Of a stretch of DNA of 64,000 bases, positions 11,837 to 62,240 are shown one piece after another (the stretch's first letter is position 1; every line of letters begins with the position of its first letter). Position numbers and translations under genes: made by a program. The notes beneath the pieces are model-generated. The model did no database searches and had not been told where the DNA came from. It was given only the letters and a program-made list of their open reading frames with translations. Location: positions 1 through 64,000 of the forward strand of contig CAXHJY010001226.1 of assembly GCA_964016885.1 (NCBI GenBank). Direction: 5' to 3'. The DNA is from Eledone cirrhosa. Taxonomy: Eukaryota.

Positions 11837-14800
11837 AGAAATTCACTTCGCCAAATTTCATTGCTTTGCTGTCTACCCCACGATATTCATGTAACGTAAT
11901 GTACATATTTTTCTTCATCTCTACCTCCACACTCCATATTTCGTACCAAGTCCAAATAGCCAATCTATCGCTAAAACAATCTACATTTTTTGTATTTATT
12001 AATTGTTAGATACGAAAGTTTTTGGTCGTATTGAACAGAACAAATTTTGTATTTTTGTTAATCGCTTGTTAAATGTGCAAGGACCCCATACAATCATTAC
12101 CTTCTATCTAGCTACCCAACACCCCTCCCTCCCGCCCCCACGCACCACCATTGCTATTACGTGGACCAATCATAAGCCAGAGCCCCCACGCATCACCAGT
12201 ATTATTATTACGCGGACCAATCAGAAGCCAGAGGCCTATACTATCGCTTGCCTGGTTGCCTTTCGATATATGATGGATGGATGGACTGCGGAATCCTGGA
12301 GAGTGGAGGAGAGAGAGAAAAATCTGGACGCTCAGCGACAATGCCAAAGATAAATACAAATTCACCTCTTGGACGAGAATGCGAGCACTCCTCATTGTTT
12401 CGAACGCGGACGGCTAACATAACCCCATCGCCCCCCGCCCCCCACCGCCCCCAACCCCCAAACGCAATCCAAAACTTCAGAGTTGGTACCATAAAGGGTC
12501 GCGCTAACGAGGTTGTAGAAATGCTTGAACGTAAGGAGGTCGATGTTTGTTGTATTCAAGAGACTAGGTGGAGGGGTGGGTCTGCTAGATTCATTGAGGG
12601 TAAAAAACGATGTTATAAGCTTTTCTGGGTGGGAAACGACGATGGGCTGGGTGGAGTAGGAATCATGGTAGCAGAAAAGTGGGCAGATAAGATAATAGAC
12701 GTAAATAGAGTGAACGACAGAATAATTAAAATACCACTTGTCCTCAATAGAACTACGGTGACAGTAATATCTGCGTACGCACCCCAATCCGGACTGCCCG
12801 GCACTATAAAAGACAGATTCTATGAGACACTGATGCTAACTACCTCCCAAATATCCGACAGTGACTATATAATTATTGCAGGCGACCTAAATGGTCACGT
12901 TGGACAACATTGTGACGGCTACGACGAAATCCATGGAGGCTATGGGTTTGGTACTAGAAATGAAGAAGGCTCCAGAATCCTGGAATTCTGTGATGCAAAT
13001 AACCTAACTATCTGTAACACTAACTTCAAAAAACGTGACAATCACCTGATCACCTATAGATCGGGGGAACACACAAGCCAGGTAGATTATATCCTTACCA
13101 GAAGACGTGACAGAGTGTCTGTTGTAAACACTAAATCCCTCCCCCATGAAGAATGCACCTCCCAACATAGACTGATAATTAGCGACCTCATAGTCAGGAC
13201 GAGACGTACTCGACAGCAGAAGAGGACTATCCTCAGGAGAAAAATATGGAAGCTAAAGGACCCCACAGCCAGGAATAAATTTCAAAGCATATTACTTGAT
13301 GCTTTCGACAGTAAGGAAGAACATTTAGAGTCGGACAATATAGAGGGAGAGTGGGAATTTCTGAAAGCAAACCTGCTGTTGGCGACAGACAAAGTCTGTG
13401 GCTGGAGCAGGCCTGTAGGCAGGAGGAGAGTAACATGGTGGTGGATCAGTAAGGTGGAGGGGTCAATTAAGGCCAAAAAGCAGGCTTGGAAAGAATGGCG
13501 GGATGGGGGAAGTAGAGAAGACTATCAAGTGGCCAGGAGGGAAGCTAGGAGACAAGTGTACTTAGCAAGAAGGGAAGCTGAGGAAAGAAAGTTCAAGCAT
13601 GTTCTACAACGCGATGACCAAAAACGTGAGGTGTTCAGGATTGCTAGGCAATGCGTCAAGGAAAACCGTGATATTGTCGGGGAGAAGTGTGTACTAAACG
13701 ACGATGGCACACTTGCCATCACCGACGCTGATAAGAAGGTAGCTTGGAAGTGTCACTATGAAAGGCTACTAAACGAGGAGAATAAATGGGAGAAAGACAG
13801 TCTCCCCCATATCGACCCAATAGAGGGACCAGCAGTGTTAGTCGAGGGGAGTATAATAAGTAAGGCAATCAAGGATATGAAGACGGGTAAGGCGGCTGGG
13901 CCTTCGGAAATAGTTGCTGAGATGCTGAAGGCATCTGGCACGGTGGGACACACCATGGTCACCCGCATAGTTAACCAAGTCGTACAGAATGGGGTTGTTC
14001 CGAAGGACTGGCATAGCAGCATCATCGTTAACTGTTATAAGGGTAAAGGAGACGCCCTAGATAGGAGTAACTATAGAGGCATTAAATTAATCGACCAGGT
14101 CATGAAGGTCACGGAAAAAGTAATAGCGCAACTAATCAGAGAGAGAATTGACCTAGATGAAATGCAGTTCGGGTTTGTGTCAGGCAAAAGTACCACAGAC
14201 GCTCTTTTCATAGTACGACAACTACAGGAGAAGTACCTAGCTAAAGGTAAACCCCTCTACTTAGCTTTTGTCGACTTGGAGAAAGCCTTCGACAGAGTCC
14301 CCCGCTCCATTATCTGGTGGGCTCTTAGAAAACTAGGCGTTGACGAATGGCTTGTGAGGGCTATACAAGCCATGTATAAAGAAACAGTCAGCAAGGTTAG
14401 AATTAACAACGAATATAGTGAAGAGTTTAGCGTAAAAGTTGGCGTCCATCAGGGCTCTGTTCTCAGCCCCCTACTATTTATTATTGCCCTTCAGGCTATA
14501 ACAGAGGAGTTCAAGACAGGCTGCCCATGGGAACTCCTATACGCAGACGACCTGACACTCATAGCGGAATCAATGGCCGAGCTAGAGAAGAAATTCCAAA
14601 CATGGAAGCACGGCCTAGAGTCAAAAGGACTTAAAATTAACCTGGCTAAGACCAAAGTTCTAGTTTGTAGGAAAGAAAACAAGGCGGCGGTCCCTTCTGG
14701 GAAATGGTCGTGCTCGGTGTGTAGGAAAGGCGTAGGTAGAAACTCCATTTTATGTCCTAAATGCAAAGTATGGGTGCATAAAAGATGTAGTGGGATCACA

Positions 14801-15882
14801 GATAAGCTAACTAAGAACATAGATTTTACATGTGGCCGGTGTTCTGGTGCAATAAGTAGCAGCAAGTGCCCACAAATACTAGCTCTTTCAATTGCGCAGA
14901 GGGTTCTATAGAAATAGTGGACAGCTTCCGTTACCTGGGCGATAAAATCAGCAGTGGGAGGGGGGTGCTCTGAAAGTACTGTAGCTAGAGTCAGAACTGG
15001 TTGGAAAAAGTTCAGAGAGCTTATACCACTATTAGCTGCTAAAGGGTTCTCCCTAAAAATGAAAGGCAGGTTGTACGATGCCTGCATACGAACAGCAATG
15101 CTGCATGGCAGTGAGACCTGGGCATTGTGTGCAGAGGATATACGCAGACTAGAGAGGAACGAAGCTTACATGCTCCGCTGGATGTGTAACAGTAATATAC
15201 GTGAACGGCAAAGCATAAACGAACTAAGGAAAAAATTAGAAATAAGAGGGATCAGATGTTTACTCGAGAGAAGGCTACGTTGGTATGGACACGTGATGCG
15301 CATGAAAGTCGATAGCTGTATAACAAAGTGCAGGGCAATAAAGATAAACGGTAGTCACGGAATAGGCAGACCTAGAAAAACCTGGGACGAGCTGATAAAC
15401 TCCGACATCACACACTTACACCTCTCCAAGACAATGTCACTGTACCGAGACCTTTGGCGGTACTCAGTAACAGAGAAGACCCGCCTTACCTAAATATATA
15501 GTAAAACCTACTCCAGCCAGTAGGCATCTCTAACAAAATACACCCCGTCCCACCACCACCACCCCCACCCCATCCACACCACCCCGTTCTATGTAAAGTT
15601 ATGTTGGTGCCGCGCCATCCAGGCCGAAACAAATGAGATCGTGTAGGTGTCACGACAAAAAAAACACACAGTCCACGCTGTAATGTGGCCGTGTAGGCAA
15701 CACGGTAAAAACCTCCCAGACCCACACTGTAAATGTGGTTGGTGTTAGGAAGGGCATCCAACTGTAGAAAACCTGCCAGACAGTCCTATGCGAGCAAGAC
15801 AATCACTCTTGCCTCAAGTGGGACTACCCCCGTCCAAACCCATGCAACCGTGGAACACGGACGTTAAACGTTGATGATGATG

Positions 15883-15884: not shown

Positions 15885-16807
<923 letters not shown>

Positions 16808-19775
16808 ATCACTTGATCACCTATAGGTCGGGGGAACACACAAGCCAGGTAGATTATATCCTTACCAGAAGACGTGACAGAGTGTCTGTTGTTAACACTA
16901 AATCCCACCCCCATGAAGAATTCACCTCCCAACATAGACTGATAATTAGCGACCTCATAGTCAGGACGAGACGTACTAGACAGCGAAAGAGGACTATCCT
17001 CAGGAGAAAAATATGGAAGCTAAAGGACCCCATAGCCAGAAATAAATTTCAAAGCAAATTACTTGACGCTTTCGACAGTAAGGAAGAGCAATTAGAGTCG
17101 TATAATATAGAGGAACAGTGGGAATTCCTGAGAGCAAACCTGCTGACGGCGGCAGACGAAGTCTGTGGCTGGAGCAGGCCTGTAGGTAGGAGGAGAGTAA
17201 CATGGTGGTGGAACAGTAAGGTGGAGGAGTCAATTAAGGCCAAAAAGCAGGCTTGGAAAGTATGGCGGGATGGGGGAAGTAGAGAAGACTATCAAGTGGC
17301 CAGGAGGGAAGCTAGGAGACAAGTGTACTTCGCAAGAAGGGAAGCAGAGGAAAGAAAGTTCAAGCATGTTCTACAACGTGAGGACCAAAAACGTGAGGTG
17401 TTCAGGATTGCCAGGCAATGTGTCAAGGAAAACCGTGATATTGTCGGGGAGAAGTGTGTACTTAACGATGATGGCATACTTGCCATCACCGACGCTGATA
17501 AGAAGGTAGCTTGGAAGTGTCACTACGAAAGGCTTCTAAATGAGGAGAACAAATGGGAGAAAGATAGTCTCCCCCAGATCGATCCAATAGAGGGACCAGC
17601 AGTGTTAGTTGAAGGTAGTATAATAAGTAAGGCAATCAAAGATATGAAGACGGGTAAGGCGGCTGGGCCTTCGGAAATAGTTGCTGAGATGCTGAAGGCA
17701 TCTGGTTCGGTGGGACACACCATGGTCACCCGGATAGTTAACCAAGTCGTACAGAATGGGGTTGTTCCGAAGGAATGGCGTAGCAGCATCATCGTTAACT
17801 GCTATAAGGGAAAAGGAGATGCCCTAGATAGGAGTAACTATAGAGGCATTAAATTAATCGACCAGGTCATGAAGGTCACGGAAAAAGTAATAGCGCAACT
17901 AATCAGAGAGAGAATTGATCTAGATGAAATGCAGTTCGGGTTTGTGTCAGGCAAAAGTACCACAGACGCTCTTTTCATTGTACGACAACTACAGGAGAAG
18001 TACCTAGCTAAAAGTAAACCCCTATACTTAGCTTTTGTCGACTTGGAGAAAGCCTTCGACAGAGTCCCCCGTTCCATTATCTGGTGGTCTCTTAGAAAAC
18101 TAGGTGTTGACGAATGGCTTGTGAGAGCTATACAAGCCATGTATAAAGAAACAGTCAGTAAGGTTAGAATTAACAACGAATATAGTGAAGAGTTTAGCGT
18201 AAAAGTTGGTGTCCATCAGGGCTCTGTACTTAGCCCCCTACTATTTATTATTGCCCTTCAGGCTATAACAGAGGAGTTCAAGACCGGCTGCCCATGGGAA
18301 CTCCTATACGCAGATGATCTAACGCTCATAGCTGAATCAATGACCGAACTAGAGAAGAAATTCCAAACGTGGAAGCACGGCCTAGAATCAAAAGGCCTTA
18401 AAATTAACCTGGCTAAGACTAAAGTTCTAGTTTGTAGGAAAGAAAATAAGGCGGCGGTCCCATCGGGGAAATGGCCATGCTGAGTGTGTAGGAAAGGCGT
18501 AGGTAGAAACTCCATTTTATGTCCCAAATGCAAAGTATGGGTGCATAAAAGATGTAGTGGGATCACAGGTAAGCTAACTAAGAACATAGATTTTACATGT
18601 GGCCGGTGCTCTGGTGCAATAAGTAGCAGCAAGTGCCCACAAAATACTAGCTCCTTCAACTGCGCAGAGGGTTCTATAGAAATAGTGGATAGCTTCCGTT
18701 ATCTGGGTGACAAAATCAGCAGTGGGGGAGGGTGCTCTGAAAGTACAGTAGCTAGAGTCAGAACTGGATGGAAAAAGTTCAGAGAGCTTATACCACTATT
18801 AGCCGCTAGAGGGTTCTCCCTAAAAATGAAAGGCAGGTTATACGATGCCTGCATACGAACAGCAATGCTGCATGGCAGTGAGACCTGGGCATTGTGTGCA
18901 GAGGATATACGCAGACTAGAGAGGAACGAAGCTTGCATGCTCCGCTGGATGTGCAATAGTAATATACGTGAACGGCAAAGCATAAACGAACTAAGGAAAA
19001 AATTAGAAATAAGAGGGATCAGATGTTGTTTACTCGAGAGAAGGCTACGTTGGTACGGTCACGTGATGCGCATGAAAGACGACAGCTGTATAACAAAGTG
19101 CAGGGCAATAAAGATAGACGGTAGCCACGGAGTAGGCAGACCCAGAAAAACATGGGACGAGCTGATAATTTCCGACCTCACACGCTTACACCTCTCCAAG
19201 ACAATGTCACTGGACCGAGACCTTTGGCGGTACTCAGTAATAGAGAAGACCCGCCTTACCTAAATACAAAGTAAAAACCTACTACAGTCAGTAGGCACCT
19301 CTATCAAAACACACCCCCGTCCCACCACCTCCACCTCCACCCCACCCACACCGCCCCTTTCAATGTAAAGTTATGTTGGCCCCACAACATCCAGGCCGAA
19401 ACAAATGAGATCGTGTAGGTGTCACGACAAAAAACACACAGTCCACGCTGTAAATGTGGCCGTGTAGGCAACACGGTAAAAACCTCCCAGCCCCACACTG
19501 TAAATGTGGTTGGTGTTAGGAAGGGCATCCAGCTGTAGAAAACCCGCCAGACAGTCCACGCTGTAATGTGGCCGTGTAGGCAACACGGTAAAAACCTCCC
19601 AGCCCCACACTGTAAATGTGGTTGGTGTTAGGAAGGGCATCCAACTGTAGAAAAGCCGCCAGACAGTCCTATGCGAGCAAGACAACCACTCTTGCCTCAA
19701 GTGGGAAAACCCCCGTCCAAACCCATGCAAGCGTGGAACACGGACGCTAAACCTGATGATGATGATGATGATGAT
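16808..19775 (+). mobile_element. RTE-A copy 2, 5'-truncated, diverged subfamily
   Basis: Begins at HLITYRSG; premature TGA at 18481-18483; ~113-bp tandem duplication in the 3'UTR (19438-19550 / 19551-19662); (GAT)n tail. Confidence 0.92.
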
Positions 19776-19793
19776 ATATATACATATATATAT

Positions 19794-22620
19794 TTTTACT
19801 CTTTTACTCTTTTACCTGTTTCAGCCATCCGGCTGAGGCCATGCTGGGGCACCGCCCTTGTTGCTACACCTCCACGTCATGCAAGTCTCGAAGATGCCTC
19901 GGCAGCCTGTTGAAGAGTTGACGTCCTGTTCGACGGTTGGTCCAGCTCCCAATGGCAAAGTTTGGTGCTAGTCCCTCCAGGATTTTCCACATGTAGATCA
20001 CTGCGTATCTCTCCCGTCTTCGCTCCAAGGAGTAGAGGTTCAGTTCCTTCAGCCTCTCCCAGTAGCTTGTCTCCCTCATCTTGGCAATCCTCTTGGTGTA
20101 GCTTCGCTGGATTGCCTCAAGCTCCGTGGTTAGTTTGACACTATGGGGTGACCACAGCTGGGAACAGTAGTCCAGGCGGCTTAGGACAAAAGTCCTCCAC
20201 AGTGTCAACATGGTGTCTCGATCTCTTGTAAGGAAAGTCCTCAAGATCCAGCCAGCGAATCGTCTACATGCTGTCGCCACCTTCATGATGTGTGAAGAAA
20301 AAGATGCATCATCGCTCATGTCTATGCCCAGGTCTCGTATCGATTTTGACACGGGGATATCGGTCCCTCCTGGTCCTGTGTAGCTGTGTTCCGCTATATT
20401 TGTGTTTGTGTTTGCAGGTTTGTATTGTAGGGCTTGGAATTTGCCAGCATTAAACTGCATGTTGTTTTCTTCCGCCCATCTGTATATGGCATCCAGATCC
20501 TGCTGTAAGAGGGCAGCGTCAGCCGGGTTTTTGATTGCCTGTGCTACCTTAGTGTCATCAGCATAGCTAGTGAGGGATGTTGTTGCATGCACCACAGAGG
20601 GCATGTCCGAGAGAGCCACCAAAAACAGTAGTGGTCCCAGGACTGTCCCCTGAGGCACCCCGCTTGTTATCGGTGTTTCCCTCGAGAGGGCCCCATTTGC
20701 TGCGACTGCCTGGCTTCTGTCCCTCAGGAAGCCATGCAGCCACTCACCTACTTTTCCAGTTATGCCGAGTCCGTGTAGTTTGTGACATGTCATTCCGTGG
20801 TCGACCTTGTCAAAGGCCTTCGCAAAGTCAAGATATATCACGTCTACATGTGAGCTGTCTAGTAGCTGTCTCAGTACCCAGTCGTAGTGATGTAGCAGCT
20901 GTGTAAGGCAGCTTCTTCCTGGGCGGAAGCCATGTTGCGTGCTAGTCAGGCGGTCATTTTCTTCGAGGAAAGTGATTAGTTTCTTTCTGACGACTCGCTC
21001 CATGACCTTACTGATATGCGACGTCAGGGAGACTGGCCTATAGTTCTTGGCCTCCGCTCTACTACCTCCTTTATGGATAGGGCATATTGTGCCTTCTTTC
21101 AGCTCCCTGGGTAGTACACCGCTAGCCAAGGAGCTTCTGAAGAGCATCTTCAGTGGAGTTGCTAAGGCCCGCTTACATATTTTTAGGAGAACTGCTGGGA
21201 ATCCATCAGGTCCAGCAGCCGAGTCTGTTCTAATTTCATCAATGGCGTACACCACATCCTCCTCCGTTATGTCTATGTGGTTGATGGTTGCCATTTCTTG
21301 ATGTAGTGTTGTGGCATCAAAGAACTCCTCTGGCTTCGTTATTTGCATGTGCCTCAGTGGACATGTGAAGACACTTTTGTACTGTTCGTTCAGTATTTCA
21401 CATATCTCTTGGGGATTTTCGGTTAATGAACCGTCCGTGTGGAAGAGTGGTCCAATCTTGCAGTGTACTGAGGCAGTTTCTTTTGCAAATTTAAAGAAGG
21501 CCTTAGGGTTTGTTTTAATGTTTTCTATGGCCCTGTTCTCTTTCCTTGCCCTCTCATTCTCATGTGAAAGCTTGAGTGCAATCTCGGTGTCAAGTAGTGC
21601 ACGTTTCAAATAGGATTCCTTCTTGTTTTGGTTTTGTTGACTATTCAACTGGTTTGAGAGTTTAGTTCTACGTCTCATAACGATTTTCCTATCTCTGGGA
21701 ATAAGATTTTTGTGTCTGTTTGCCTCTTTCTCCGGGACACACTTTTTGCATATGGTGTGTATCGTTGTCATGAAGTGTTGAAATTGTGTGTTAGTGTCTT
21801 GTGTGACGATGTTTGCACTCCATGTTTGCTTCCGGATTTCACTCTTAATCTTCTTCCAGTCAGCCCCGTAGAAGTTAAGGCTGGATAGCGTCCCGGAGCT
21901 TCTTGGTGGTTTTGTCTCTGTTGGTTCTCTTGGACCACATATCATTAGCTCTACCAAGTTATGATCCGAGAGAATTGTTGGTGTCACCTTTACATTGTGG
22001 ATGAGCACTTCGTTGTTTGTAAAACAGAGGTCCAGGACATTTTCGCCTCTTGTTGGGAGGAGTATTGCTTGCTCCATGAACAGCCTGTGTGTGAGGGCCA
22101 GCAGGGATTCCGTCTGTCTCTGTTCTATTGACGTCATTCCAGGGAGGAGGTGGCCCTCAGGCCATTTGACCTTTGGTAGGTTGAAGTCTCCCAGCAGTAG
22201 GATGTTGAGACCCTGGTCCAGTTTGTCAAGAACCTCTTCTATCCTACTTAGGCTATCCTCAAATTTACCCTCATGACTGGGGGCATCGAGCGGCCGATAT
22301 GTGACACATATTACCGTCTGTAGTTGCTTCATATGTATTATCAGTGTGTCACAGACTGAGTTTGAATGTGTCAACAGTACAATTGGTGTGACATCTTCAC
22401 GGATATACAGAGCAACCCCACCATGAGTTCTCTCCTTCCTGTCCGAACGAAATACAGTATATTTCGGTATATGTATTTCTGCATCTGCTATACTGCTTGT
22501 CAGGTGCGTTTCGGTTAGTGCCATGCATAGTGCTTGATTGCTTATGGCTAAGTCTCCCAGGTAGGAAATTTTACTCATGTTGCTGAGTTTCACCAGGCCC
22601 CTGACATTCAGCAGCAGCAC
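19794..22620 (-). mobile_element. CR1-clade LINE (second family), ORF1 lost
   Basis: APE-RT ORF. The 3' end reads (rc) GGCGGTGCCCCAGCATGGCC...CTGAAACAGGTAAAAGAGTAAAAGAGTAAAAA. Confidence 0.88.
19864..22620 (-). CDS. APE-RT ORF2, open but with C-terminal deletions; real coding part of track ORF 19864-24774
   Basis: [83 protein letters not shown]. Confidence 0.88.
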
Positions 22621-26971: not shown

Positions 26972-26987
26972 CATATATATATATATG

Positions 26988-27038
<51 letters not shown>

Positions 27039-27053
27039 GTATATATATATATG

Positions 27054-27130
<77 letters not shown>

Positions 27131-27137
27131 GTATATC

Positions 27138-27174
<37 letters not shown>

Positions 27175-27341
27175 GTATATATATATGTATATCTATATAT
27201 ATATATATGTATATATATATGTATATCTATATATATATATATATGTATATCTATATATATATCTATATATATATATATATGTGTATATATATATATGTAT
27301 ATCTATATATATATATATATGTGTATATATATATATGTATA

Positions 27342-27384
<43 letters not shown>

Positions 27385-27641
27385 ATATATATATATCTAT
27401 ATATATATATCTATATATATCTATATATATATATCTATATATATATATCTATATATCTATCTATATATATATCTATATATATATCTATCTATCTATATAT
27501 CTATCTATATATCTATATATCTATATATATATCTATATATATATATCTATATATATATCTATATATATATCTATATATATATCTATATATATATCTATAT
27601 ATATATCTATATATATATCTATATCTATATATATATATATA
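26972..27641. repeat. (TA)n microsatellite with TG/TC interruptions
   Basis: Directly visible. Confidence 0.95.
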
Positions 27642-28572
27642 TGACAAATTCACTCACTTTGATCTCAGCAAACAGGGGAGATAAGCCGACAAGACTTGTT
27701 GCGCTTTGGTTGAAGCTTATCAAGGCCAACTACCCCACCTGTTTGCTGAGATCATCGATGTTATACTCTTATAGAAATCTAGTAAATAATCAGGAGCTGA
27801 TTATGCAGAGCGGTTGTTGGTCAGGCAGAAATTAAAGATTAGAATTGGAGCTCTGAAATAGCAATATATATATGGATGTATATATAATGTATTTTGCAAT
27901 ACACTTTATGCTTAATTAAAAGCATTTTGAAGACCGTAAGCTATTGTTTTAAAGTAGTGACAAATTCACTCACTTTGATCTCAGCAAACAGGGGAGATAA
28001 GCCGACAAGACTTGTTTCGCTTTGGTTGAAGCTTATCAAGGCCAACTACCCCCACCTGTTTGCTGAGATCATTGATGTTATATTCTTATAGAAATCTAGT
28101 AAATAATCAGGAGCTGATTATGCAGAGTGGTTGTTGGTCAGGCAAAAATTAAAGATTAGAATTGGAGCTCTGAAATAGCAATATATATATGGATGTATAT
28201 ATAATGTATTTTGCTATACACTTTATGCTTAATTAAAAGCATTTTGAAGACCGTAAGCTATTGTTTTAAAGTAGTGACAAATTCACTCACTTTGATCTCA
28301 GCAAACAGGAGAGATAAGCCGACAAGACTTGTTTCGCTTTGGTTGAAGCTTATCAAGGCCAACTACCCCACCTGTTTGCTGTTGATAAGCTTCAACCAAA
28401 GCGAAACAAGTCTTGTCGGCTTATCTCCCGTTTGCTGAGATCAGAGTGAGTGAATTTGTCACTACTTTAAAACAATAGCTTACGGTCTTCAAAATGCTTT
28501 TAATTAAGCATAAAGTGTATTGCAAAATACATTATATATACATCCATATATATATTGCTATTTCAGAGCTCC
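27642..28572 (-). mobile_element. Candidate non-LTR retrozyme: 2.3 tandem 316/317-bp units plus an inverted partial unit
   Basis: Units start at 27642, 27958 and 28275 (the third ends at 28380); 28382-28572 is an inverted copy; each unit contains an HHR. Confidence 0.8.
27976..28071 (-). ncRNA. Type I hammerhead ribozyme, U3-A8 core variant (unit 2; unit 3 copy 28293-28380, mutated unit 1 copy 27660-27754)
   Basis: rc GGCC-TTGATAA-GCTT caacca AAGC-GAAAC AAGTCTT GTC^GGCT, enclosed by the 17-bp helix TGATCTCAGCAAACAGG/CCTGTTTGCTGAGATCA. Confidence 0.8.
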
Positions 28573-29490
<918 letters not shown>

Positions 29491-32400
29491 ATCATCATCA
29501 TCATCATCATCATCAACGTTTAACGTCCGTGTTCCACGCTTGCATGGGTTTGGACGGGGGTAGTCCCACTTGAGGCAAGAGTGATTGTCTTGCTCGCATA
29601 GGACTGTCTGGCAGGTTTTCTACAGTTGGATGCCCTTCCTAACACCAACCACATTTACAGTGTGGGTCTGGGAGGTTTTTACCGTGTTGCCTACACGGCC
29701 ACATTACAGCGTGGACTGTGTGTTTTTTTTGTCGTGACACCTACACGATCTCATTTGTTTCGGCCTGGATGGCGCGGCACCAACATAACTTTACATAGAA
29801 CGGGGTGGTGTGGATGGGGTGGGGGTGGCGGCGGGAGGGGTGTATTTTGTTAGAGATGCCTACTGGCAAGGCGGGTCTTCTCTGTTACTGAGTACCGCCA
29901 AAGGTCACGGTCCAGTGACATTGTCTTGGAGAGGTGTAAGTGTGTGAGGTCGGAGTTTATCAGCTCATCCCATGTTTTTCTAGGTCTGCCTATTCCGTGG
30001 CTACCGTCTATCTTTATTGCCCTGCACTTTGTAATACAGCTATCGACTTTCATGCGCATCACGTGTCCATACCAACGCAGCCTTCTCTCGAGTAAACAAC
30101 ATCTGATCCCTCTTATCTCTAATTTTTTCCTTAGTTCGTTTATGCTTTGCCGTTCACGTATATTACTGTTACACATCCAGCGGAGCATGCAAGCTTCGTT
30201 CCTCTCTAGTCTGCGTATATCCTCTGCACACAATGCCCAGGTCTCACTACCATGCAACATTGCTGTTCGTATGCAGGCATCGTACAACCTGCCTTTCATT
30301 TTTAGGGAGAACCCTTTAGCAGCTAATAGTGGTATAAGCTCTCTGAACTTTTTCCAACCAGTTCTGACTCTAGCTACAGTACTTTCAGAGCACCCTCCCC
30401 CACTGCTGATTTTATCGCCCAGGTAACGGAAGCTGTCCACTATTTCTATAAAACCCTCTGCGCAATTGAAAGAGCTAGTATTTTGTGGGCACTTGCTGCT
30501 ACTTATTGCACCAGAACACCGGCCACATGTAAAGTCTATGTTCTTAGTTAGCTTACCTGTGATCCCACTACATCTTTTATGCACCCATACTTTGCATTTA
30601 GGACATAAGATGGAGTTTCTACCTACGCCTTTCCTACATACCGAGCACGACCATTTCCCAGAAGGGACCGCCGCCTTGTTTTCTTTCCTACAAACTAGAA
30701 CTTTGGTCTTAGCCAGGTTAATTTTAAGTCCTTTTGACTCTAGGCCGTGCTTCCATGTTTGGAATTTCTTCTCTAGCTCGGCCATTGATTCCGCTATGAG
30801 TGTCAGGTCGTCTGCGTATAGGAGTTCCCATGGGCAGCCTGTCTTGAACTCCTCTGTTATAGCCTGAAGGGCAATAATAAATAGTAGGGGGCTGAGAACA
30901 GAGCCCTGATGGACGCCAACTTTTACGCTAAACTCTTCACTATATTCGTTGTTAATTCTAACCTTGCTGACTGTTTCTTTATACATGGCTTGTATAGCCC
31001 TCACAAGCCATTCGTCAACGCCTAGTTTTCTAAGAGCCCACCAGATAATGGAGCGGGGGACTCTGTCGAAGGCTTTCTCCAGGTCGACAAAAGCTAAGTA
31101 GAGGGGTTTACCTTTAGCTAGGTACTTCTCCTGTAGTTGTCGTACTATGAAAAGAGCGTCTGTGGTGCTTTTGCCTGACACAAACCCGAACTGCATTTCA
31201 TCTAGATCAATTCTCTCTCTGATTAGTTGCGCTATTACTTTTTCCGTGACCTTCATGACCTGGTCGATTAATTTAATGCCTCTATAGTTACTCCTATCTA
31301 GGGCGTCTCCTTTACCCTTATAACAGTTAACGATGATGCTGCTATGCCAGTCCTTCGGAACAACCCCATTCTGTACGACTTGGTTAACTATGCGGGTGAC
31401 CATGGTGTGTCCCACCGTGCCAGATGCCTTCAGCATCTCAGCAACTATTTCCGAAGGCCCAGCCGCCTTACCAGTCTTCATATCCTTGATTGCCTTACTT
31501 ATTATACTCCCCTCGACTAACACTGCTGGTCCCTCTATCGGGTCGATATGGGGGAGACTGTCTTTCTCCCATTTATTCTCCTCATTTAGTAGCCTTTCAT
31601 AGTGACACTTCCAAGCTACCTTCTTATCAGTGTCGGTGATGGCAAGTATGCCATCATCGTTAAGTACACACTTCTCCCCGACAATATCACGGTTTTCCTT
31701 GACGCATTGCCTGGCAATCCTGAACACCTCACGTTTTTGGTCATCGCGTTGTAGAACATGCTTGAACTTTCTTTCCTCAGCTTCCCTTCTTGCTAAGTAC
31801 ACTTCTCTCCTAGCTTCCCTCCTGGCCACTTGATAGTCTACTCTACTTCCCCCATCCCGCCATACTTTCCAAGCCTGCTTTTTGGCCTTAATTGACCCCT
31901 CCACCTTACTGTTCCACCACCATGTTACTCTCCTCCTGCCTACAGGCCTGCTCCAGCCACAGACTTCGTCTGTCGCCAACAGCAGGTTAGCTTTCAGAAA
32001 TTTCCACTGTCCCTCTATATTGTCCGATTCTAGATGCTCTTCCTTACTGTCGAAAGCATCAAGTAATATGCTTTGAAATTTATTTCTGGCTGAGGGGTCT
32101 TTTAGTTTCCATATTTTCCTCCTGAGGATAGTCCTCTTCTGCTGTCGGGTGCGTCTCGTCCTGACTATGAGGTCGCTAATTATCAGTCTATGTTGGGAGG
32201 TGCATTCTTCATGGGGGAGGGATTTAGTGTTTACAACAGACACTCTGTCACGTCTTCTGGTAAGGATATAATCTACCTGGCTTGTGTGTTCCCCGGATCT
32301 ATAGGTAATCAGGTGATTGTCACGTTTTTTGAAGTTAGTGTTACAGATAGTTAGGTTATTTGCATCACAGTATTCCAGAATTCTGGAGCCTTCCTCATTT

Positions 32401-33525
32401 CTAGTACCAAACCCATAGCCTCCATGGATTTCGTCATAGCCGTCACAATGTTGTCCAACGTGACCATTTAGGTCGCCTGCAATAATTATATAGTCACTGT
32501 CAGATATTTGGGAGGTAGTTAGCAACAGTGTCTCATAGAATCTGTCTTTTATAGTGCCGGGCAGTCCGGATTGGGGTGCGTACGCAGATATTACTGTCAC
32601 CGTAGTTCTATTGAGGACAAGTCTTATTTTAATTATTCTGTCGTTCACTCTATTTACGTCTATTATCTTATCTGCCCACTTTTCTGCTACCATGATTCCT
32701 ACTCCACCCAGCCCATCGTCGTTTCCCACCCAGAAAAGCTTATAACATCGTTTTTTACCCTCAATGAATCTAGCAGACCCACCCCTCCACCTGGTCTCTT
32801 GAATACAACAAACATCGACCTCCTTACGTTCAAGCATTTCTACAACCTCGTTAGCGCGACCCTTTAGGGTGCCTATATTTATGGTACCAACTCTGAAGTT
32901 TTGGGTTGCGTTTGGAGGGTGGGGGTGGTGGGGGGCGGGAGGAGATAGGGTTATGTTAGCCATCCGCGGACGAAACAAAGAGGAGTGCTCGCATTCTCGT
33001 CCACGAGGTGAATTTGACTTTAACTTTGGCATTTTCGCTCTGGGCGTCCAGATTTTTCTCTCCCTTCCACTCTCCAAGGATTCCGCAGTCCGTCCGTCCA
33101 TCCATCCATCCATCCATCCATCGTATATCGAAGGCAACCGGGCAAGCGATAGTATAGGCCTCTGGCTTATGATTTGGTCCGCGTAATAATAATAATGGTG
33201 ATGCGTGGGGGTGGGGGTGGGTGGCTCTGGCTTATAATAATGGTGGTGATGCGGGGGGGGGGGGGGGGGGGGGCTCTCGCTTATGATTGGTCCACGTATT
33301 AAGTATGGTGGCGTGTGGGGGCGGGAGGGAGGGGTGTGGGGTAGCTAGCTGGAAGGTTATGAATGTTTAACAAGCGATTTAACAAAAAGCAAAACTGCAA
33401 GATTTGTTCTGTTCAATACGACAAAAACACCGTATTTAAACCTTAAATAGATAACAAAAAAATACAGATTTCGGATTTTGCGAGATTGGATGTTTGTTTG
33501 GACTGTGTACGGAATTGAGCGTGGA
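29491..33525 (-). mobile_element. RTE-A copy 3, full length
   Basis: 5'UTR with CCAAT-containing monomers, intact ORF, 3'UTR and (GAT)n tail; both ends in TA-type arrays. Confidence 0.95.
29850..33032 (-). CDS. Intact RTE ORF (~1060 aa): APE endonuclease and reverse transcriptase with an inserted PHD finger
   Basis: No stops from MPKLK to the end; all APE and RT motifs present (GTINIGTL, IQETRW, GDLNGH, QVDYIL, YADD, FRYLG). Confidence 0.92.
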   Translation of the reverse strand: MPKLKSNSPRGRECEHSSLFRPRMANITLSPPAPHHPHPPNATQNFRVGTINIGTLKGRANEVVEMLERKEVDVCCIQETRWRGGSARFIEGKKRCYKLFWVGNDDGLGGVGIMVAEKWADKIIDVNRVNDRIIKIRLVLNRTTVTVISAYAPQSGLPGTIKDRFYETLLLTTSQISDSDYIIIAGDLNGHVGQHCDGYDEIHGGYGFGTRNEEGSRILEYCDANNLTICNTNFKKRDNHLITYRSGEHTSQVDYILTRRRDRVSVVNTKSLPHEECTSQHRLIISDLIVRTRRTRQQKRTILRRKIWKLKDPSARNKFQSILLDAFDSKEEHLESDNIEGQWKFLKANLLLATDEVCGWSRPVGRRRVTWWWNSKVEGSIKAKKQAWKVWRDGGSRVDYQVARREARREVYLARREAEERKFKHVLQRDDQKREVFRIARQCVKENRDIVGEKCVLNDDGILAITDTDKKVAWKCHYERLLNEENKWEKDSLPHIDPIEGPAVLVEGSIISKAIKDMKTGKAAGPSEIVAEMLKASGTVGHTMVTRIVNQVVQNGVVPKDWHSSIIVNCYKGKGDALDRSNYRGIKLIDQVMKVTEKVIAQLIRERIDLDEMQFGFVSGKSTTDALFIVRQLQEKYLAKGKPLYLAFVDLEKAFDRVPRSIIWWALRKLGVDEWLVRAIQAMYKETVSKVRINNEYSEEFSVKVGVHQGSVLSPLLFIIALQAITEEFKTGCPWELLYADDLTLIAESMAELEKKFQTWKHGLESKGLKINLAKTKVLVCRKENKAAVPSGKWSCSVCRKGVGRNSILCPKCKVWVHKRCSGITGKLTKNIDFTCGRCSGAISSSKCPQNTSSFNCAEGFIEIVDSFRYLGDKISSGGGCSESTVARVRTGWKKFRELIPLLAAKGFSLKMKGRLYDACIRTAMLHGSETWALCAEDIRRLERNEACMLRWMCNSNIRERQSINELRKKLEIRGIRCCLLERRLRWYGHVMRMKVDSCITKCRAIKIDGSHGIGRPRKTWDELINSDLTHLHLSKTMSLDRDLWRYSVTEKTRLASRHL

Positions 33526-39551: not shown

Positions 39552-42089
39552 TGGGAATTTCTGAAAGCAAACCTGCTGATGGCGACAGACGAAGTCTGTG
39601 GCTGGAGCAGGACTGTAGGCAGGAGGAGAGTAACATGGTGGTGGAACAGTAAGGTGGAGGGGTCAATTAAGGCCAAAAAGTAGGCTTGGAAAGTATGGCG
39701 GGATGGGGGAAGTAGAGAAGACTATCAAGTGGCCAGGAGGGAAGCTAGGAGACAAGTGTACTTAGCAAGAAGGGAAGCTGAGGAAAGAAAGTTCAAGCAT
39801 GTTCTACAACGCGAGGACCAAAAACGTGAGGTGTTCAGGATTGCTAGGCAATGCGTCAAGGAAAACCGTGATATTGTCGGGGAGAAGTGTGTACTTAACG
39901 ATGATGGCATACTTGCCATCACCGATGCTGATAAGAAGGTAGCTTGGAAGTGTCACTATGAAAGGCTACTAAATGAGGAGAATAAATGGGAGAAAGACAG
40001 TCTCCCCCACATCGACCCAATAGAGTGACCAGCAGTGTTAGTCGAGGGGAGTATAATAAGTAAGGCAATCAAGGATATGAAAACGGGTAAGGCGGCTGGG
40101 CCTTCGGAAATAGTTGCTGAGATGCTGAAGGCATCTGGCACGGTGGGACAACCCATGGTCACCCGCATAGTTAACCAAGTCGTACAGAATGGGGTTGTTC
40201 CGAAGGACTGGCATAGCAGCATCATCGTTAACTGTTATGAGGGTAAAGGAGACGCCCTAGATAGGAGTAACTATAGAGGCATTAAATTAATCGACCAGGT
40301 CATGAAGGTCACGGAAAAAGTAATAGCGCAACTAATCAGAGAGAGAATTGAGCTAGATGAAATGCAGTTCGGGTTTGTGTCAGGCAAAAGTACCACAGAC
40401 GCTCTTTTCATTGTACGACAACTACAGGAGAAGTACCTAGCTGAAGGTAAACCCCTCTACTTAGCTTTTGTCGACTTGGAGAAAGCCTTCGACAGAGTCC
40501 CCCGCTCCATTATCTGGTGGGCTCTTAGAAAACTAGGCGTTGACGAATGGCTTGTGAGAGCTATACAAGCCATGTATAAAGAAACAGTCAGCAAGGTTAG
40601 AATTAACAACGAATATAGTGAAGAGTTTAGCGTAAAAGTTGGCGTCCATCAGGGCTCTGTTCTCAGCCCCCTACTATTTATTATTGCCCTTCAGGCTATA
40701 ACAGAGGAGTTCAAGACCGGCTGCCCATGGGAACTCCTATACGCAGACAACCTGACACTCATAGCGGAATCAATGGCCGAGCTAGAGAAGAAATTCCAAA
40801 CATGGAAGCATGGCCTAGAATCAAAAGGACTTAAAATTAACCTGGCTAAGACTAAAGTTCTAGTTTGTAGGAAAGAAAATAAGGCGGCGGTCCCTTCTGG
40901 GAAATGGTCGTGCTCGGTGTGTAGGAAAGGCGTAGGTAGAAACTCCATTTTATGTCCTAAATGCAAAGTATGGGTGCATAAAAGATGTAGTGGGATCACA
41001 GGTAAGCTAACTAAGAACATAGATTTTACATGTGGCCGGTCCTCTGGTGCAATAAGTAGCAGCAAGTGCCCACAAAATACTAGCTCTTTAAATTGCGCAG
41101 AGGGTTCTATAGAAATAGTGGACAGCTTCCGTTACCTGGGCGATAAAATCAGCAGTGGGGGAGGGTGCTCTGAAAGTACAGTAGCTAGAGTCAGAACTGG
41201 TTGGAAAAAGTTCAGAGAGCTTATACCACTATTAGCTGCTAAAGGGTTATCCCTAAAAATGAAAGGCAGGTTGTACGATGCCTGCATACGAACAGCAATG
41301 TTGCATGGCAGTGAGACCTGGGCATTGTGTGCAGAGGATATACGCAGACTAGAGAGGAACGAAGCTTGCATGCTCCGCTGGATGTGTAACAGTAATATAC
41401 GTGAACGGCAAAGCATAAACGAACTAAGGAAAAAATAAGTAATAAGAGGGATCAGATGTTGTTTACTCGAGAGAAGGCTACGTTGGTATGGACACGTGAT
41501 GCGCATGAAAGTCGATAGCTGTATAACAAAGTGCAGGGCAATAAAGATAGACGGTAGCCACGGAATAGGCAGACCTAGAAAAACCTGGGACGAGCTGATA
41601 AACTCCGACCTCACACACTTACACCTCTCCAAGACAATGTCACTGGACCGAGACCTTTGGCGGTACTCAGTAACAGAGAAGACCCGCCTTACCTAAATAC
41701 ATAGTAAAACCTACTACAGCCAGTAGGCATCTCTAACAAAATACACCCCGTCCCACCACCACCACCACCACCCCATCCACACCACCCCGTTCTATGTAAA
41801 GTTATGTTGGTGCCGCGCCATCCAGGCCGAAACAAATGAGATCGTGTAGGTGTCACGACAAAAAAACACACAGTCCACGCTGTAATGTGGCCGTGTAGGC
41901 AACACGGTAAAAACCTCCCAGACCCACACTGTAAATGTGGTTGGTGTTAGGAAGGGCATCCAACTGTAGAAAACCTGCCAGACAGTCCTATGCGAGCAAG
42001 ACAATCACTCTTGCCTCAAGTGGGACTACCCCCGTCCAAACCCATGCAAGCGTGGAACACGGACGTTAAACGTTGATGATGATGATGAT
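39549..42089 (+). mobile_element. RTE-A copy 5, 5'-truncated, inactivated
   Basis: Several stops; YADD mutated to YADN; (GAT)n tail. Confidence 0.92.
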
Positions 42090-50790: not shown

Positions 50791-53700
50791 ATGGCCAATA
50801 TAAGAGTTGGGTATGTGAATGTACGCGGCCTGGGGATGCCCTGGAAACAAGGCAAACTCTTAAACGACCTCAGGTCACACAGTATGGATGTAGTAGCCAT
50901 TTGCGGGTCCAGGATCCACAGCGAACGACAGCTGGCCCCCATCTTCGATGACATTGAGATCTACGCATCCCCCTGTTAGCCGAGGGGGTGGGGCGGGGTT
51001 GCCGTTTTGCTGCGGAAACACCTGGGCCTCGTAACACAGATGGTACATCTGGACCCGGAGGGTCGATTGGTGGTCATAGACGTTGACGGTAGTGAAGGTG
51101 GAGCCTTCAGGCTGATGGCCGCATATGCCCCATCCGGGACACCGCGGCCAGACTTCTTCAAACGTCTAGAGACTTTTCTGGGAACGTCCCGCTCCTTGCT
51201 TTTAGTGGAGGACTGGAATGGAATCCGAGATGCACGTTGGGACTATGTGGGAGCATGTCCCGATAAAGGGGGGTGTAACATCCTCAAACAGTTAATCGGC
51301 CGATTTGACCTGGCCGATAGATATCAACTAGATTTTCCGACTGTGCCACTGTGGACGTGGACTAATCGCAGCAGAACATCTAGATCGTACCTAGATAGGG
51401 TTCTAGTTAGAAATAAGGATAGGGACATATTAAGCTGTCCACAAATGTTCATGGTTGCCTATTCAGATCACAAACTAGTGACCTGCATGGTCAACCTTGA
51501 TAGAACCCATAGACACGGACCCTGCTACTGGAAGCTGAACTTGTCATTACCGACATGCAAAGCCTACAGTACACGGATTAGCACTTTAGTTAAACAGCAC
51601 TTGACAGGGGCCATTGTCAACAACAGATGGTGGTACTCTCTCAAGAGGGAAGTTAGATTAGACTCGTTAGTTTTTAGTAAAGAATTAGCGTTAGATAGAA
51701 ATAGAACCAAGAAAGAACTGGTAGATAAAGTAGAAGAGGCAATTAGAAGTGGCAACGTAGCCAGCGTGCTAGCAACGAGAACGGCCTTGGACCAGTTCTT
51801 TGACGCAAAGCATGAGGGCTGCGTTGTCAGAAGCAAAATACGTGCTCTGGGAAACGAGGGAGCCAAAGCTGTTAGCTGGGCCCGAGTGACGGAGGCAAAA
51901 AGTGGTAACAAGTCCACGATTCGGTCTTTGAAGGACTAAAACGGACGCGTGATACGTAACCCGAAGCGGGTGTGTGGCCTTTCAGCGGCACTTTGCTCAG
52001 CTGTTCGGGCAGGGCGGCGCGCCGGGAGGGGCTATGGATTTTGGTCCATACCTCGACGGCCTACCGCGACTCTCGGAGAGCGAGGCAAAGTTCTGCGAAA
52101 AGCCGATTTCAGCCGCTGAGATAGGGAACGCGTTGAGCCAATGCGGCAAACGCAAATCTCCAGGTCTCGACGGTCTACCCTACGAATTTTATGTAACAAT
52201 GCCGGACTTATTCTCCGGTCTCCTGGAAGTGGTCTACTGCAACTGGCGACAGAACGGGAGAATTCCCAGTTCTGTGACCGGGGACGTAGTCACACTAGTC
52301 AGGAAGGACGAAAATAAGGGGGATGACATAGGCAACTTCCGGCCCATAACTCTGCTAAACACAGAGTTACAGATTTTGGCCAAGGTGTTGGCAAAGAGGC
52401 TGGCGCTTGTCGTCGAGAACCTGGTGGGAGAAGCACAGACATGCGCAATCCCGACCAGGTCCATACACGACAACCTCCACCTCATGCGATACATCATAGA
52501 GAGGATAGGGTGTAAACCCGGCTTCGGTGGGGCCCTGATCAACTTGGATCAGACTAAGGCTTTCGATAGGGTTGACCATCGTTACCTGGATGCGGTGCTC
52601 GAGGCAGCAGGCTTCGGACCCGTGTTCAGGGGCTGGATTGCTGCAATGCATAACAGCAACATCTGCTCAAGGGTTAAGGTGAATGGCTACCTCTCGGAGC
52701 CGTTCCATATCACGCGATCCATTCGACAGGGATACCCTCTCTCCTCCCTTCTGTACGTATTGACTCTCGAGCCACTACTGCAGAAGTTGGAGCTGTTGCA
52801 GGACATCCCTCTGGAACCGGGACTGCGGATAGCGGCGTCGACCTACGCCGACGACGTGACAGTAATGGTGTCGAGCGCCTTGGCACCTTGCTGAAGGAAT
52901 ACGAAAGGTTCACAGGAGCGAAGCTGAACCGTGACAAGTCCATCGGTTTGCAACTCGGATCGTGGAGGCAGACCGATGCCTTGCGATGGCGTCGTCGGAC
53001 GCTGGACGGAAGGACCAGTAAAGCTGCTCAGGGTCTGGTTTGGTCCGGACCTCCAGGTGGAGAAGAACTGGAACGAGGTGTCGGTTAAGGTGTTTGCACT
53101 CATCCAGAAGTGGGCTGAGTGCAAACTATCCTTGAAAGGTCGAGCGGAGGTGGAGAACACTTATAGTGTCCGCCATCTACTACCGCTTGACCGTCGTGCC
53201 TTGTCCAGCCAAAACGCTCGCCAAAATGGAGCGCGTGCTCTTCCAATTCCTTTGGAAGAGGCAGGCTCCTTTGGTGAGAAGATCCATCTGCTGCCAACGC
53301 CCTTCCAACGGAGGGTTGGGGATGCCGTGGCTGACGATGCGCAAACATGCGCTCAGGCTGCGGCATCTCTACGTATTCCTCACCGGACAACCGGTGTGGG
53401 CCCCGTTCATGAGGCGAGCCTTCCCACGACTCGTCTCGCTGACCGAGCTGCAGTCCTGGGTCAAGCAAAGACCGAGGAAAATGGGCGACTGGCACATCAA
53501 ATGTGCTCAGGCGCTCACAGCCCTCTGGCAGGCAAACCCGGCGAACAGTGGAGACTCCACTTCGTCATTCTATAGAGGGTTGATCCGCAGCAAGTGCGAC
53601 GACGTGCTCGGTGAAACTCTGGGCATAGAGGAAGACGAACTGGCCATTCTGTTCGGTAGGACCTTTCGCCTGGGACCGATGGACAACTTCCCAAAATCCC

Positions 53701-56860: not shown

Positions 56861-58574
56861 CGGGAAGACACTTGGTGTGTGTATGCAGGATGGGATTGGA
56901 GAGATAGGTTTAAGGTGAGGTAGCTAGTGATGGTGGAGTGTTTTATATATATATACTCCTGGGGAACTGAGGACTGTAATGTGCATAGAACTTCTCTCAT
57001 CTTACCAAAGAAAATAGTGAAGTACTACACTATATATATATATATATATATATATACGATATTAAATAAATGGAAACTATATTTATAAAACCATATTTAT
57101 TTCATTATATATATTTCAGGGATATCATATTAAAAATATGGTATGCCTTCTTCAGACAAAATACAATATAAACAGTCTTATAAATAGATAGATTTGACAT
57201 ACCTTACGACTTCAACTTCCATTTAAAAAGTTGATTTGGTAGTGAAAAATGTTAGGGACAGTTATAAAAAGAAAGAAAGAAAGAAAAAACGAAGAAAAAG
57301 AAGAAATGCATGCAACTAAATAGAGAGAGATAGATATAGAGAGATAGATAGAGAGAAGAAATTCATGTAAAGAAACAGAGATAGATAGATAGAGAGAGAA
57401 AAAACACAGAGGGAGATAGATAGAGAGAGAGAGAGAAAAGAGAGAGAGAAAAAATAGAGAGAGAAATAGATATAGATAGAGATAGAGAGAAAGAAAATAG
57501 GTAGTTGGGCACCAGTTGAATGGCGTATCAATGATATATTTATTTATTTATTTATTTATTTAGTTCTAGTATTAAGGTAGAGAGAGATATATGTGGTTAG
57601 GAGAGAAAACAGCCGTTACATAGAGAGAAAAGAAAAATATCCAGAGATAAACGAGGCAGATTTAAAACATTATGTTTCATCAATGTAAAAATATCAATTC
57701 GTATGAATTAGGTATTATAATGTAAATATCAGTATTCATGAATGAGGCACGTATCAATAATGTGTGAAAAATAATGATCATATGTCTAGTTTAAAATTCC
57801 TAGGTTTATATCAGAGCTGAGATTAAAAAAACTGAGATAAAAAAACTGAGATAAAAAACTGAGATTAAAAACTTTAAAAAAAATTGAAATACATAAGTAT
57901 ATATGCACTTTCATGAAAAAAGAAAAAAAAAAAAAGAGAAAAAGAAAAAGAAAATAGAAGGTTATCCCAGATTCGATACTATAGACTTCCATGTGAATTT
58001 ACGTGATCAACTCTGCAAATTCCTATTTCACATGAAAACATTCTCATTGTGCTATAAAAATTCTAGTATACATATATGTGTACATACACACAAATATATA
58101 TAGAATCTACATTAATTTTAACAATACTATTCTTGTCTTTACTCTACATGATTATCGTTCAAGTATAAATAGACAACAGATATCAATATATCAATAAAAA
58201 TATCAAAAAATTAAAAAATATTAAAAATAAAACACAGTATGCCCCGCAAATCAATCACAGAGATCAACCCTTCAAAATTAATTGACAATATATTGCCAAG
58301 TTCATTATAAGCATCAGAATCAAAAGCAAACAAAACCAAAATTATTTACCAAATCCTGTCTAGCAGAAATCATTCTAAAAGTTTAGGATACCCATTTGAT
58401 CTACAGATGGTCTTATATTTATTATAGAAGTTTATCTGGTGTAAAATTTATTCGATATATTTGGAGCATCAGCTTTTAGGGTAGTTTAATTATTCATGAA
58501 GAATGTTTAAAAAAAAGAAATCGAAAGATTTATCGGCGAGTTTCATAAATAATTATAAATCATAAGTAAATATA

Positions 58575-60828: not shown

Positions 60829-62240
60829 TATATTTACTTATGATTTATAATTATTTATGAAACTCGCCGATAAATCTTTCGATTTCTTTTTTTTAAACAT
60901 TCTTCATGAATAATTAAACTACCCTAAAAGCTGATGCTCCAAATATATCGAATAAATTTTACACCAGATAAACTTCTATAATAAATATAAGACCATCTGT
61001 AGATCAAATGGGTATCCTAAACTTTTAGAATGATTTCTGCTAGACAGGATTTGGTAAATAATTTTGGTTTTGTTTGCTTTTGATTCTGATGCTTATAATG
61101 AACTTGGCAATATATTGTCAATTAATTTTGAAGGGTTGATCTCTGTGATTGATTTGCGGGGCATACTGTGTTTTATTTTTAATATTTTTTAATTTTTTGA
61201 TATTTTTATTGATATATTGATATCTGTTGTCTATTTATACTTGAACGATAATCATGTAGAGTAAAGACAAGAATAGTATTGTTAAAATTAATGTAGATTC
61301 TATATATATTTGTGTGTATGTACACATATATGTATACTAGAATTTTTATAGCACAATGAGAATGTTTTCATGTGAAATAGGAATTTGCAGAGTTGATCAC
61401 GTAAATTCACATGGAAGTCTATAGTATCGAATCTGGGATAACCTTCTATTTTCTTTTTCTTTTTCTCTTTTTTTTTTTTTCTTTTTTCATGAAAGTGCAT
61501 ATATACTTATGTATTTCAATTTTTTTTAAAGTTTTTAATCTCAGTTTTTTATCTCAGTTTTTTTATCTCAGTTTTTTTAATCTCAGCTCTGATATAAACC
61601 TAGGAATTTTAAACTAGACATATGATCATTATTTTTCACACATTATTGATACGTGCCTCATTCATGAATACTGATATTTACATTATAATACCTAATTCAT
61701 ATGAATTGATATTTTTACATTGATGAAACATAATGTTTTAAATCTGCCTCGTTTATCTCTGGATATTTTTCTTTTCTCTCTATGTAACGGCTGTTTTCTC
61801 TCCTAACCACATATATCTCTCTCTACCTTAATACTAGAACTAAATAAATAAATAAATAAATAAATATATCATTGATACGCCATTCAACTGGTGCCCAACT
61901 ACCTATTTTCTTTCTCTCTATCTCTATCTATATCTATTTCTCTCTCTATTTTTTCTCTCTCTCTTTTCTCTCTCTCTCTCTATCTATCTCCCTCTGTGTT
62001 TTTTCTCTCTCTATCTATCTATCTCTGTTTCTTTACATGAATTTCTTCTCTCTATCTATCTCTCTATATCTATCTCTCTCTATTTAGTTGCATGCATTTC
62101 TTCTTTTTCTTCGTTTTTTCTTTCTTTCTTTCTTTTTATAACTGTCCCTAACATTTTTCACTACCAAATCAACTTTTTAAATGGAAGTTGAAGTCGTAAG
62201 GTATGTCAAATCTATCTATTTATAAGACTGTTTATATTGT

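Follow-up and report, generated by a model that had tools for sequence, protein, structure and literature searches.

The window, a stretch of 64,000 nt that constitutes an entire 64-kb contig from the (TA)n-rich, 3.0-Gb genome of Eledone cirrhosa, contains an insertion bordered on both sides by (TA)n-type microsatellite (Table 1). A main arm of 2.3 head-to-tail units on the minus strand is joined head-to-head to a partial, inverted copy on the plus strand. The sequence-only reading had described the whole as one head-to-tail array, which is correct for the main arm but not for the inverted copy. The unit length that it proposed agrees with the 316 and 317 nt measured for the two full units (97–98% identical), the minus-strand UUGAUAA cores are present and the three GUC cleavage triplets lie at the positions that it named (sites read from sequence).

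Table 1. Position of the insertion, its parts and other features in the window
Feature	Positions	Strand	Details
Main arm, 2.3 units head-to-tail	27642–28381	−	By sequence comparison; lengths when divided at the cut sites: 61 nt (partial), 317 nt, 316 nt, 46 nt (partial)
Partial copy, inverted, head-to-head with main arm	28382–28572	+	Unit positions 281–316 then 1–158; C17 of truncated core at 28417
Unit 1 hammerhead with A13C	27660–27755	−	U3 27723, A13C 27701, C17 27688
Unit 2 hammerhead, the sole intact and unblocked one	27976–28071	−	U3 28039, A8 28034, C17 28004; outer helix pairs 28071–28055 with 27992–27976
Unit 3 hammerhead, intact core, shortened outer helix	28292–28381	−	U3 28356, C17 28321
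26-nt 'tail' bounded by the two 3' end sites common to the family	27838–27864	−	Unit position 140 = 27864, closing an (AT)5 run; 166 = 27838, ...TTCTAAT; the two sites recur at 28181 and 28155
(TA)n-type microsatellite, left flank, target	26973–27642		
(TA)n-type microsatellite, right flank, target	28573–29492		
LINE with PHD finger after RT domain, four copies	12176–14908, 16600–19260, 29853–33344, 40029–41435		APE endonuclease in two copies
Another LINE type	19867–22500		Pieces at 50980–52891
112-bp unit, 2.1 tandem copies	19438–19669		97% identical
Mirror-image simple-repeat sets	57322–57959, 61444–62081		About 4 kb apart

Core nucleotides 3–9, G12-A13-A14, A15.1-U16.1 and H17 are intact in units 2 and 3, apart from the paired 3:8 swap. 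Unit 2 comprises the 17-bp outer helix, stem I, UUGAUAA, stem II (GCUU/AAGC), GAAA, a palindromic stem III and GUC; the perfect 17-bp helix previously attributed to the units is found there, but unit 3 has only part of it. The GCAAC noted in unit 1 corresponds to an A13C change, through which this ribozyme is likely inactive. The inverted arm has a fourth core, truncated on its 5' side, and since the arm begins at U3 its hammerhead is left without the 5' strand of stem I. In a read-through transcript, about 190 bp of pairing is predicted between unit 3 and the inverted arm; because unit 1 is mutated and unit 3 would be engaged in this way, the locus seems unlikely to release a monomer. The inversion and these poor prospects as a source of monomers had been overlooked, as had the link to PLEs (below). 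Rfam matches to microRNA and leader families at 28311–28427 were discarded as a mere reflection of the inversion hairpin. Assembled contigs over 27890–28200 were likewise set aside as evidence for a circle: the unit wraps round in 2 of the 4 runs concerned, and tandem DNA gives the same result; the best-matching run may come from the sample used for the assembly.

The open reading frames of the window (15 scanned) belong to APE-type LINEs or are unmatched; none belongs to a PLE. One LINE type combines RT domain and PHD finger in an unusual domain order (Table 1). The two mirror-image sets of simple repeats have an arrangement suggesting a long inverted repeat.

The hammerhead motif and its family

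A search of the genome with the unit returned 223 matches from the best 40 of 689 candidates, with full units at 95–98% identity, and the exact core pattern matched 2,094 times (reversed control, 0). In 196 full motifs from 74 loci, a sample that was partly core-selected, U3 is present in 192 and A8 in all 196. A sister family, first met at locus L032 and with 3,285 candidates, has a 315-nt unit that is identical to the present one at 223 of 298 bases (75%) and carries the canonical C3-G8 core CUGAUGA; a 27-nt motif common to both clades has 5,676 matches in the genome. Forty-nine loci were picked by means of this motif and not by the ribozyme, and they yielded 36 readable cores, in which the 3:8 pair is C-G (16), U-A (15), U-G (3) or C-A (2). 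The tree (midpoint root; core kept in the alignment) divides them 18 versus 18 with support of 100/99, so that the 3:8 swap occurred once.

Stem II exists in several versions (GCUU/AAGC, GCAU/AUGC, GCAC/GUGC, GUAC/GUAC, AUAC/GUAU and others). Covariation over the three helices was analysed in 25 sequences hand-picked for intact cores, a set with few independent lineages in which relatedness inflates the figures: 96.6% of the cells are paired, versus 43–50% in slid controls, and both sides have changed in 12 of 29 pairs, the 3:8 pair being U-A in 15 sequences and C-G in 10. In 160 of 186 motifs the palindrome of stem III has no mismatch, across lengths of 11, 12 and 13 nt. The C3-G8 sister, the co-varying stems and the conserved palindrome of stem III together argue that the hammerhead fold has been selected as a structure. 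A dispersed family with co-varying stems, as the sequence-only reading had anticipated, is thus what the genome contains, and it appears to be a young tandem retrozyme family under selection for its fold. Larger arrays were also observed, one of about 25 units with a 6-unit higher-order duplication (L146; G000:C1:293634500-293644400) and one of about 9 units (L147). The higher-order duplication in the former indicates that insertions can expand into satellites at the DNA level.

At its gathering score, Rfam gives no match in the window; Hammerhead_HH9 matches 3 of 3 units at 20.9–25.6 bits, under the gathering score of 52. The fold of the unit has a z-score of −6.8 in comparison with 100 shuffles, and stem III (ACAAG-U-CUUGU) is palindromic, of the dimer-cleaving type. 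The units had been said to fold into a hammerhead, but the predicted minimum is another fold, in which CUUG of the core pairs with CAAG of stem III and GUC is buried. According to a folding model that omits tertiary contacts, the active fold would lie 7.2 kcal/mol above the ensemble (9.7 kcal/mol in the sister clade); for a two-ribozyme RNA, the same model predicts a cost of 12.1 kcal/mol for a strand-swapped dimer and of 14.4 kcal/mol for monomers. A predicted consensus fold picks the same inactive pairing, with U-A in the U3-A8 clade and C-G in the sister. Conservation of this pairing in both clades amounts to a single event and could be forced by the symmetry of stem III. If the predictions are correct, the ribozyme would rest in the inactive fold and cleave slowly; cleavage would run as a dimer through the palindromic stem III, or with the help of a protein, and monomers and circles may arise as a side step or an earlier step.

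The U3-A8 swap retains hammerhead activity. In the accessible portions of the literature examined, we found no activity test of this variant in any PLE or retrozyme.

Insertion ends and a candidate PLE partner

The first 100 core matches on contig C1 correspond to 52 distinct insertions (one tandem duplicate omitted), which are head-to-head inversions in 30 cases, have one arm in 20 and are complex in 2. Positions are numbered with the base that follows C17 as 1. On this scale, 36 of the 81 outer (3') ends fall at position 140 and 26 at position 166, i.e. 62 of 81 at two sites 26 nt apart. One end at 140 and one at 166 were found in 19 of the 30 inversions, and five more pair 139–140 with 169–177; 140 twice or 166 twice was found in none of the 30. 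The exact base of the 140 end is blurred because the (AT)5 run merges with the target. Ends of the sister clade are at 141 (10) and 168 (7), together 17 of 29. The inner (5') ends are distributed flatly along the unit, two of the 124 being 6 nt or less from the cut site (4.7 expected), and the arms overlap at their junction by 0–6 nt in 37 of 49 cases. The flanks are AT-rich and of (TA)n type, in which a target duplication is unreadable. The copy in the window is atypical for the family, with outer ends at 46 and about 158 that were likely trimmed after insertion. Two tiny inverted insertions (L254 and L255) consist of the two tail regions alone, without a ribozyme, and are near-perfect palindromes.

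We infer that positions 140 and 166 are reverse-transcription start sites. Inversion, (TA)n targets, 3' ends at two fixed sites and 5' ends at random ones make up the published 'inverted copy plus tail' signature of PLEs, in which an inverted 5'-truncated copy is accompanied by a 30–40 bp tail at one end (PMC8557442, PMC3846280) and a (TA)n bias is listed as a feature (PMC8557442). The array ends lying out of register with the cleavage site had been offered as evidence for a circle, an argument that loses its force with 3' ends fixed at two internal sites and 5' ends that are random, as in PLEs. Endonuclease-bearing PLEs of the Neptune type, as presented in the accessible text of PMC8557442, PMC3846280 and PMC11167929, resemble the family in the inverted copy truncated on its 5' side, in the tail present at a single end, in microsatellite targets and in partial tandems; the retrozyme differs from them in having no coding frame and in the length of its tail (26 nt versus the published 30–40). 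In vitro, a PLE is reported to have both DNA strands cut and extended, two internal RNA start sites bounding the tail and uncleaved RNA as its main substrate, the ribozyme being cut only with protein (PMC11167929).

The genome has 10,595 GIY-YIG candidates, of which the best 150 were scored and 50 loci were examined. One of these, L091, is a PLE with a 4.98-kb period and terminal repeats that are 99% identical. Its frame of 938 residues, with a frameshift near the 5' end in the copy examined, comprises RVT_1, GIY-YIG and a CX4CxxC linker, which is assigned to Neptune and Nematis in the accessible text of PMC8557442; its minimal hammerhead has the core UUGAAAA, i.e. U3-A8. The L091 family is young, since 40 of 41 matches (best of 1,170 candidates) are at 97–100%. 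Ends of this family were collected from 30 loci: 32 are at TTTCTAAT preceding (AT)n, the end favoured by the query, and 6, all on the inverted arm, are at TTCTTTATA, 64 nt upstream. The terminal TTCTAAT is common to the long end of the retrozyme (166) and to this PLE. Beside L091 there is a weak match to the unit, which falls beyond the limits of the element and was disregarded.

At L127/L211, retrozyme and PLE meet in a direct head-to-head junction. The retrozyme arm has its outer end at 166, and the PLE arm starts within the ORF and terminates at the short site; the combination of one long and one short end is as would be seen in a single event. Direct junctions were also found with the same PLE at L132, where both ends are long, and with another PLE family at L083, and the junctions at L013, L084 and L142 are complex, those at L013 and L142 again involving other PLE families. 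A clean pair of one long and one short end is confined to L127, and L132, L084, L013, L142 and L118 were rejected as clean chimeras. Shared (TA)n targets combined with deletion could mimic some chimeric neighbours. A retrozyme-unit profile (nhmmer) was run over 85 PLE-bearing loci, a small part of the 10,595 GIY-YIG candidates, and recovered retrozyme copies only, with no similarity to PLE terminal repeats in these loci. Because no terminal repeat in them resembles the unit, L091 is a candidate partner and not one identified by descent.

Other PLE families were encountered as well. One that is akin to L091 was recognized by 3' terminal repeats at ten loci (L098, L041, L039, L059, L054, L044, L047, L057, L046 and L010). 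Its hammerhead has GCAA for GAAA (A13C) in 10 of 10 copies and U3-A8 in 9 of 10, and such a family-wide change would make the ribozyme either dead or unusual; the two ends of this family are about 36 nt apart. Minimal hammerheads of C3-G8 type were found in two families (L013/L083/L112/L053/L057 and L040/L093/L103/L232), both with an end at ...TATAACAAT preceding (AT)n; L013-type copies are about 98% identical.

Template and competing explanations

On balance, we lean towards a retrozyme insertion with a U3-A8 motif that a Neptune-type PLE, through its RT and GIY-YIG endonuclease, copied into (TA)n tracts. The enzyme would cut both strands of the microsatellite; synthesis of one cDNA would begin at 140, base pairing between AUAUAUAUAU and the target being possible there, and that of the second at 166 (CUAAU). 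The two cDNAs would pass back through successive units, across uncut ribozyme sites, before stopping at random and joining through a microhomology of 0–6 nt. As a rule, the template is probably a multimeric transcript, uncleaved and common to both arms.

Copies extend over the cleavage site, from which it follows that the template was a multimer or a circle, as had been proposed. Diagnostic variants are common to both arms in 26 of 35 insertions, versus 4.9 in shuffles (maximum 11, of 2,000); L028 is an exception, its arms being of different subfamily and differing at 7 of 20 sites. Counted from the 3' ends, unit variants match between arms in 5 of 8 informative insertions (L070, L139, L018, L019 and L123), fail to match in L119 and L128 and are mixed in L147. 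The pooled register count with 16 loci added is 13/113 for the same rank versus 21/278 for other ranks, a weak difference affected by double counting. Gene conversion between arms could yield the register match.

A second possibility, to be entertained tentatively, keeps the same PLE enzyme and has as template a ~316-nt circle, generated by double self-cleavage and host ligation and copied repeatedly, which is the published retrozyme model. Arms that cross the cut site, 5' ends that are not piled there and internal starts all fit an endless template, the ribozyme is clearly under selection, and the predicted inactive resting fold would protect a circle; abundant circles are described from retrozymes of coral, mussel and axolotl (PMC7229834). 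One haplotype usually prevails among the units of an insertion, as a circle would predict just as well, and in L064 one rare variant is present in 7 of 7 segments. However, the position-matched unit differences in 5 of the 8 informative insertions are unexpected from one monomer circle, and 4 rare variants are in all covering segments versus 32 in some. Dimers of Xenopus retrozymes cleaved in vitro in 1 case of 9 (bioRxiv 2026.07.22.740005), and PLE ribozyme mutants insert in vitro nonetheless (PMC11167929), both according to the accessible text. The variant pattern leans towards a multimer with non-identical units as template, in preference to one circular monomer.

It is improbable that inversion resulted from fold-back or self-priming of one cDNA, or from DNA rearrangement, with one priming event and arrays produced by unequal exchange. 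Self-priming has been proposed for inverted PLE copies (PMC3846280), the arms have variants in common and the 25-unit array with its 6-unit higher-order repeat shows growth at the DNA level, but 140 on one arm and 166 on the other, in either order, would be left unexplained, as would arms of differing subfamily (L028) or element (L127). That the element travels as a SINE-like passenger with the APE-type LINEs, which are abundant in this genome, is disfavoured, and we regard it as very unlikely: several LINE frames of the window have endonuclease and RT domains, but the element itself lacks a poly(A) or repeat tail, twin priming yields an inverted 5' part and not two 3' ends, and none of 27 single-arm 5' flanks passes directly into a LINE frame (nearest match 298 nt off). 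An ordinary satellite resembling a hammerhead by chance would fit the lack of an Rfam match at gathering score and the prediction of a minimum other than the active fold, but can practically be dismissed in view of the compensatory changes that affect every stem as well as 3:8 across two clades and several subfamilies, and of dispersal with PLE-type ends.

Relation to known elements and significance

These elements are best seen as non-LTR retrozymes in a U3-A8 version, probably mobilised by PLEs, and not as a new class. As described in the accessible text of PMC7229834 and bioRxiv 10.64898/2026.07.22.740005, metazoan non-LTR retrozymes have the same ~300-nt non-coding AT-rich tandem units with one type I hammerhead per unit, no LTR and thousands of dispersed copies, and are likewise proposed to be PLE-dependent, a link argued via co-occurrence and terminal-repeat similarity. 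The match to this class rests here on sequence criteria, whereas RNA circles are known from other retrozymes. The present family differs by its U3-A8 core, by its two fixed ends and head-to-head insertions in (TA)n and, unlike retrozymes elsewhere, by the lack of resemblance to any PLE terminal repeat in the sample; self-pairing is predicted to block the ribozyme here, whereas an active fold is predicted for the majority of animal retrozyme circles. In the available text of PMC7229834 the word 'inverted' is absent; in that of the bioRxiv preprint it occurs in a reference title only, and 'tail' is absent.

The U3-A8 core had been called rare. The swap is real but less rare than supposed, with about 1,300 matches reported from PLEs of Schistosoma mansoni (PMC4209133) and with autonomous PLEs that have it in this genome too. 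Minimal hammerheads in PLE pseudo-LTRs include a variant in Cercyon from S. mansoni (PMC4209133) with the same U3-A8 pair, and have in common with the present motif a palindromic stem III and an architecture of dimer type; unlike them, the present motif belongs to an ORF-less tandem unit, with a stem III arm of 4–5 bp, a 17-bp extension of stem I and a traceable C3-G8 sister clade. MRC1, a non-autonomous Chlamys PLE of Chlamydomonas, is also multicopy, head-to-tail and PLE-mobilised; elements of this type generally have the 3' sequence of their partner, whereas here the terminal TTCTAAT alone matches the candidate (PMC8557442). In mostly open-access literature, no report was found of U3-A8 tandem retrozymes or of a PLE end signature in retrozymes; no paper joining animal retrozymes with inverted insertions or twin priming was among the matches listed, and the literature search gave no relevant report on octopus hammerhead ribozymes.

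The useful part of this analysis is the insertion anatomy together with the candidate enzyme. The family bears the mechanistic fingerprint of PLE insertion, with a candidate enzyme of similar age and two defined start sites, and because these are in hand the published in vitro PLE assay is directly applicable. It also allows a test of circle versus multimer as template, and its C3-G8 and U3-A8 sister clades represent a compensatory change made by nature, in which ribozyme kinetics can be compared. Retrozymes are undercounted when searches insist on CUGANGA, as had been foreseen, given that U3-A8 accounts for 15 of the 36 cores from loci chosen without the ribozyme.

A wider and rather doubtful scenario combines an old retrozyme that mimics nothing of PLEs but their two RT start sites, a PLE dimer with different RNAs, a ribozyme switch and stable circles. 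If this were true, an old retrozyme lineage would parasitise Neptune-type PLEs without any sequence debt to their terminal repeats, and the halves of a PLE dimer would carry different RNAs, writing retrozyme and PLE into one insertion (L127). Base 3 would pair either with base 8, in the active state, or with the stem III palindrome, in the inactive one; both pairings would have survived the change from C3-G8 to U3-A8, and small circles would escape standard CUGANGA searches.
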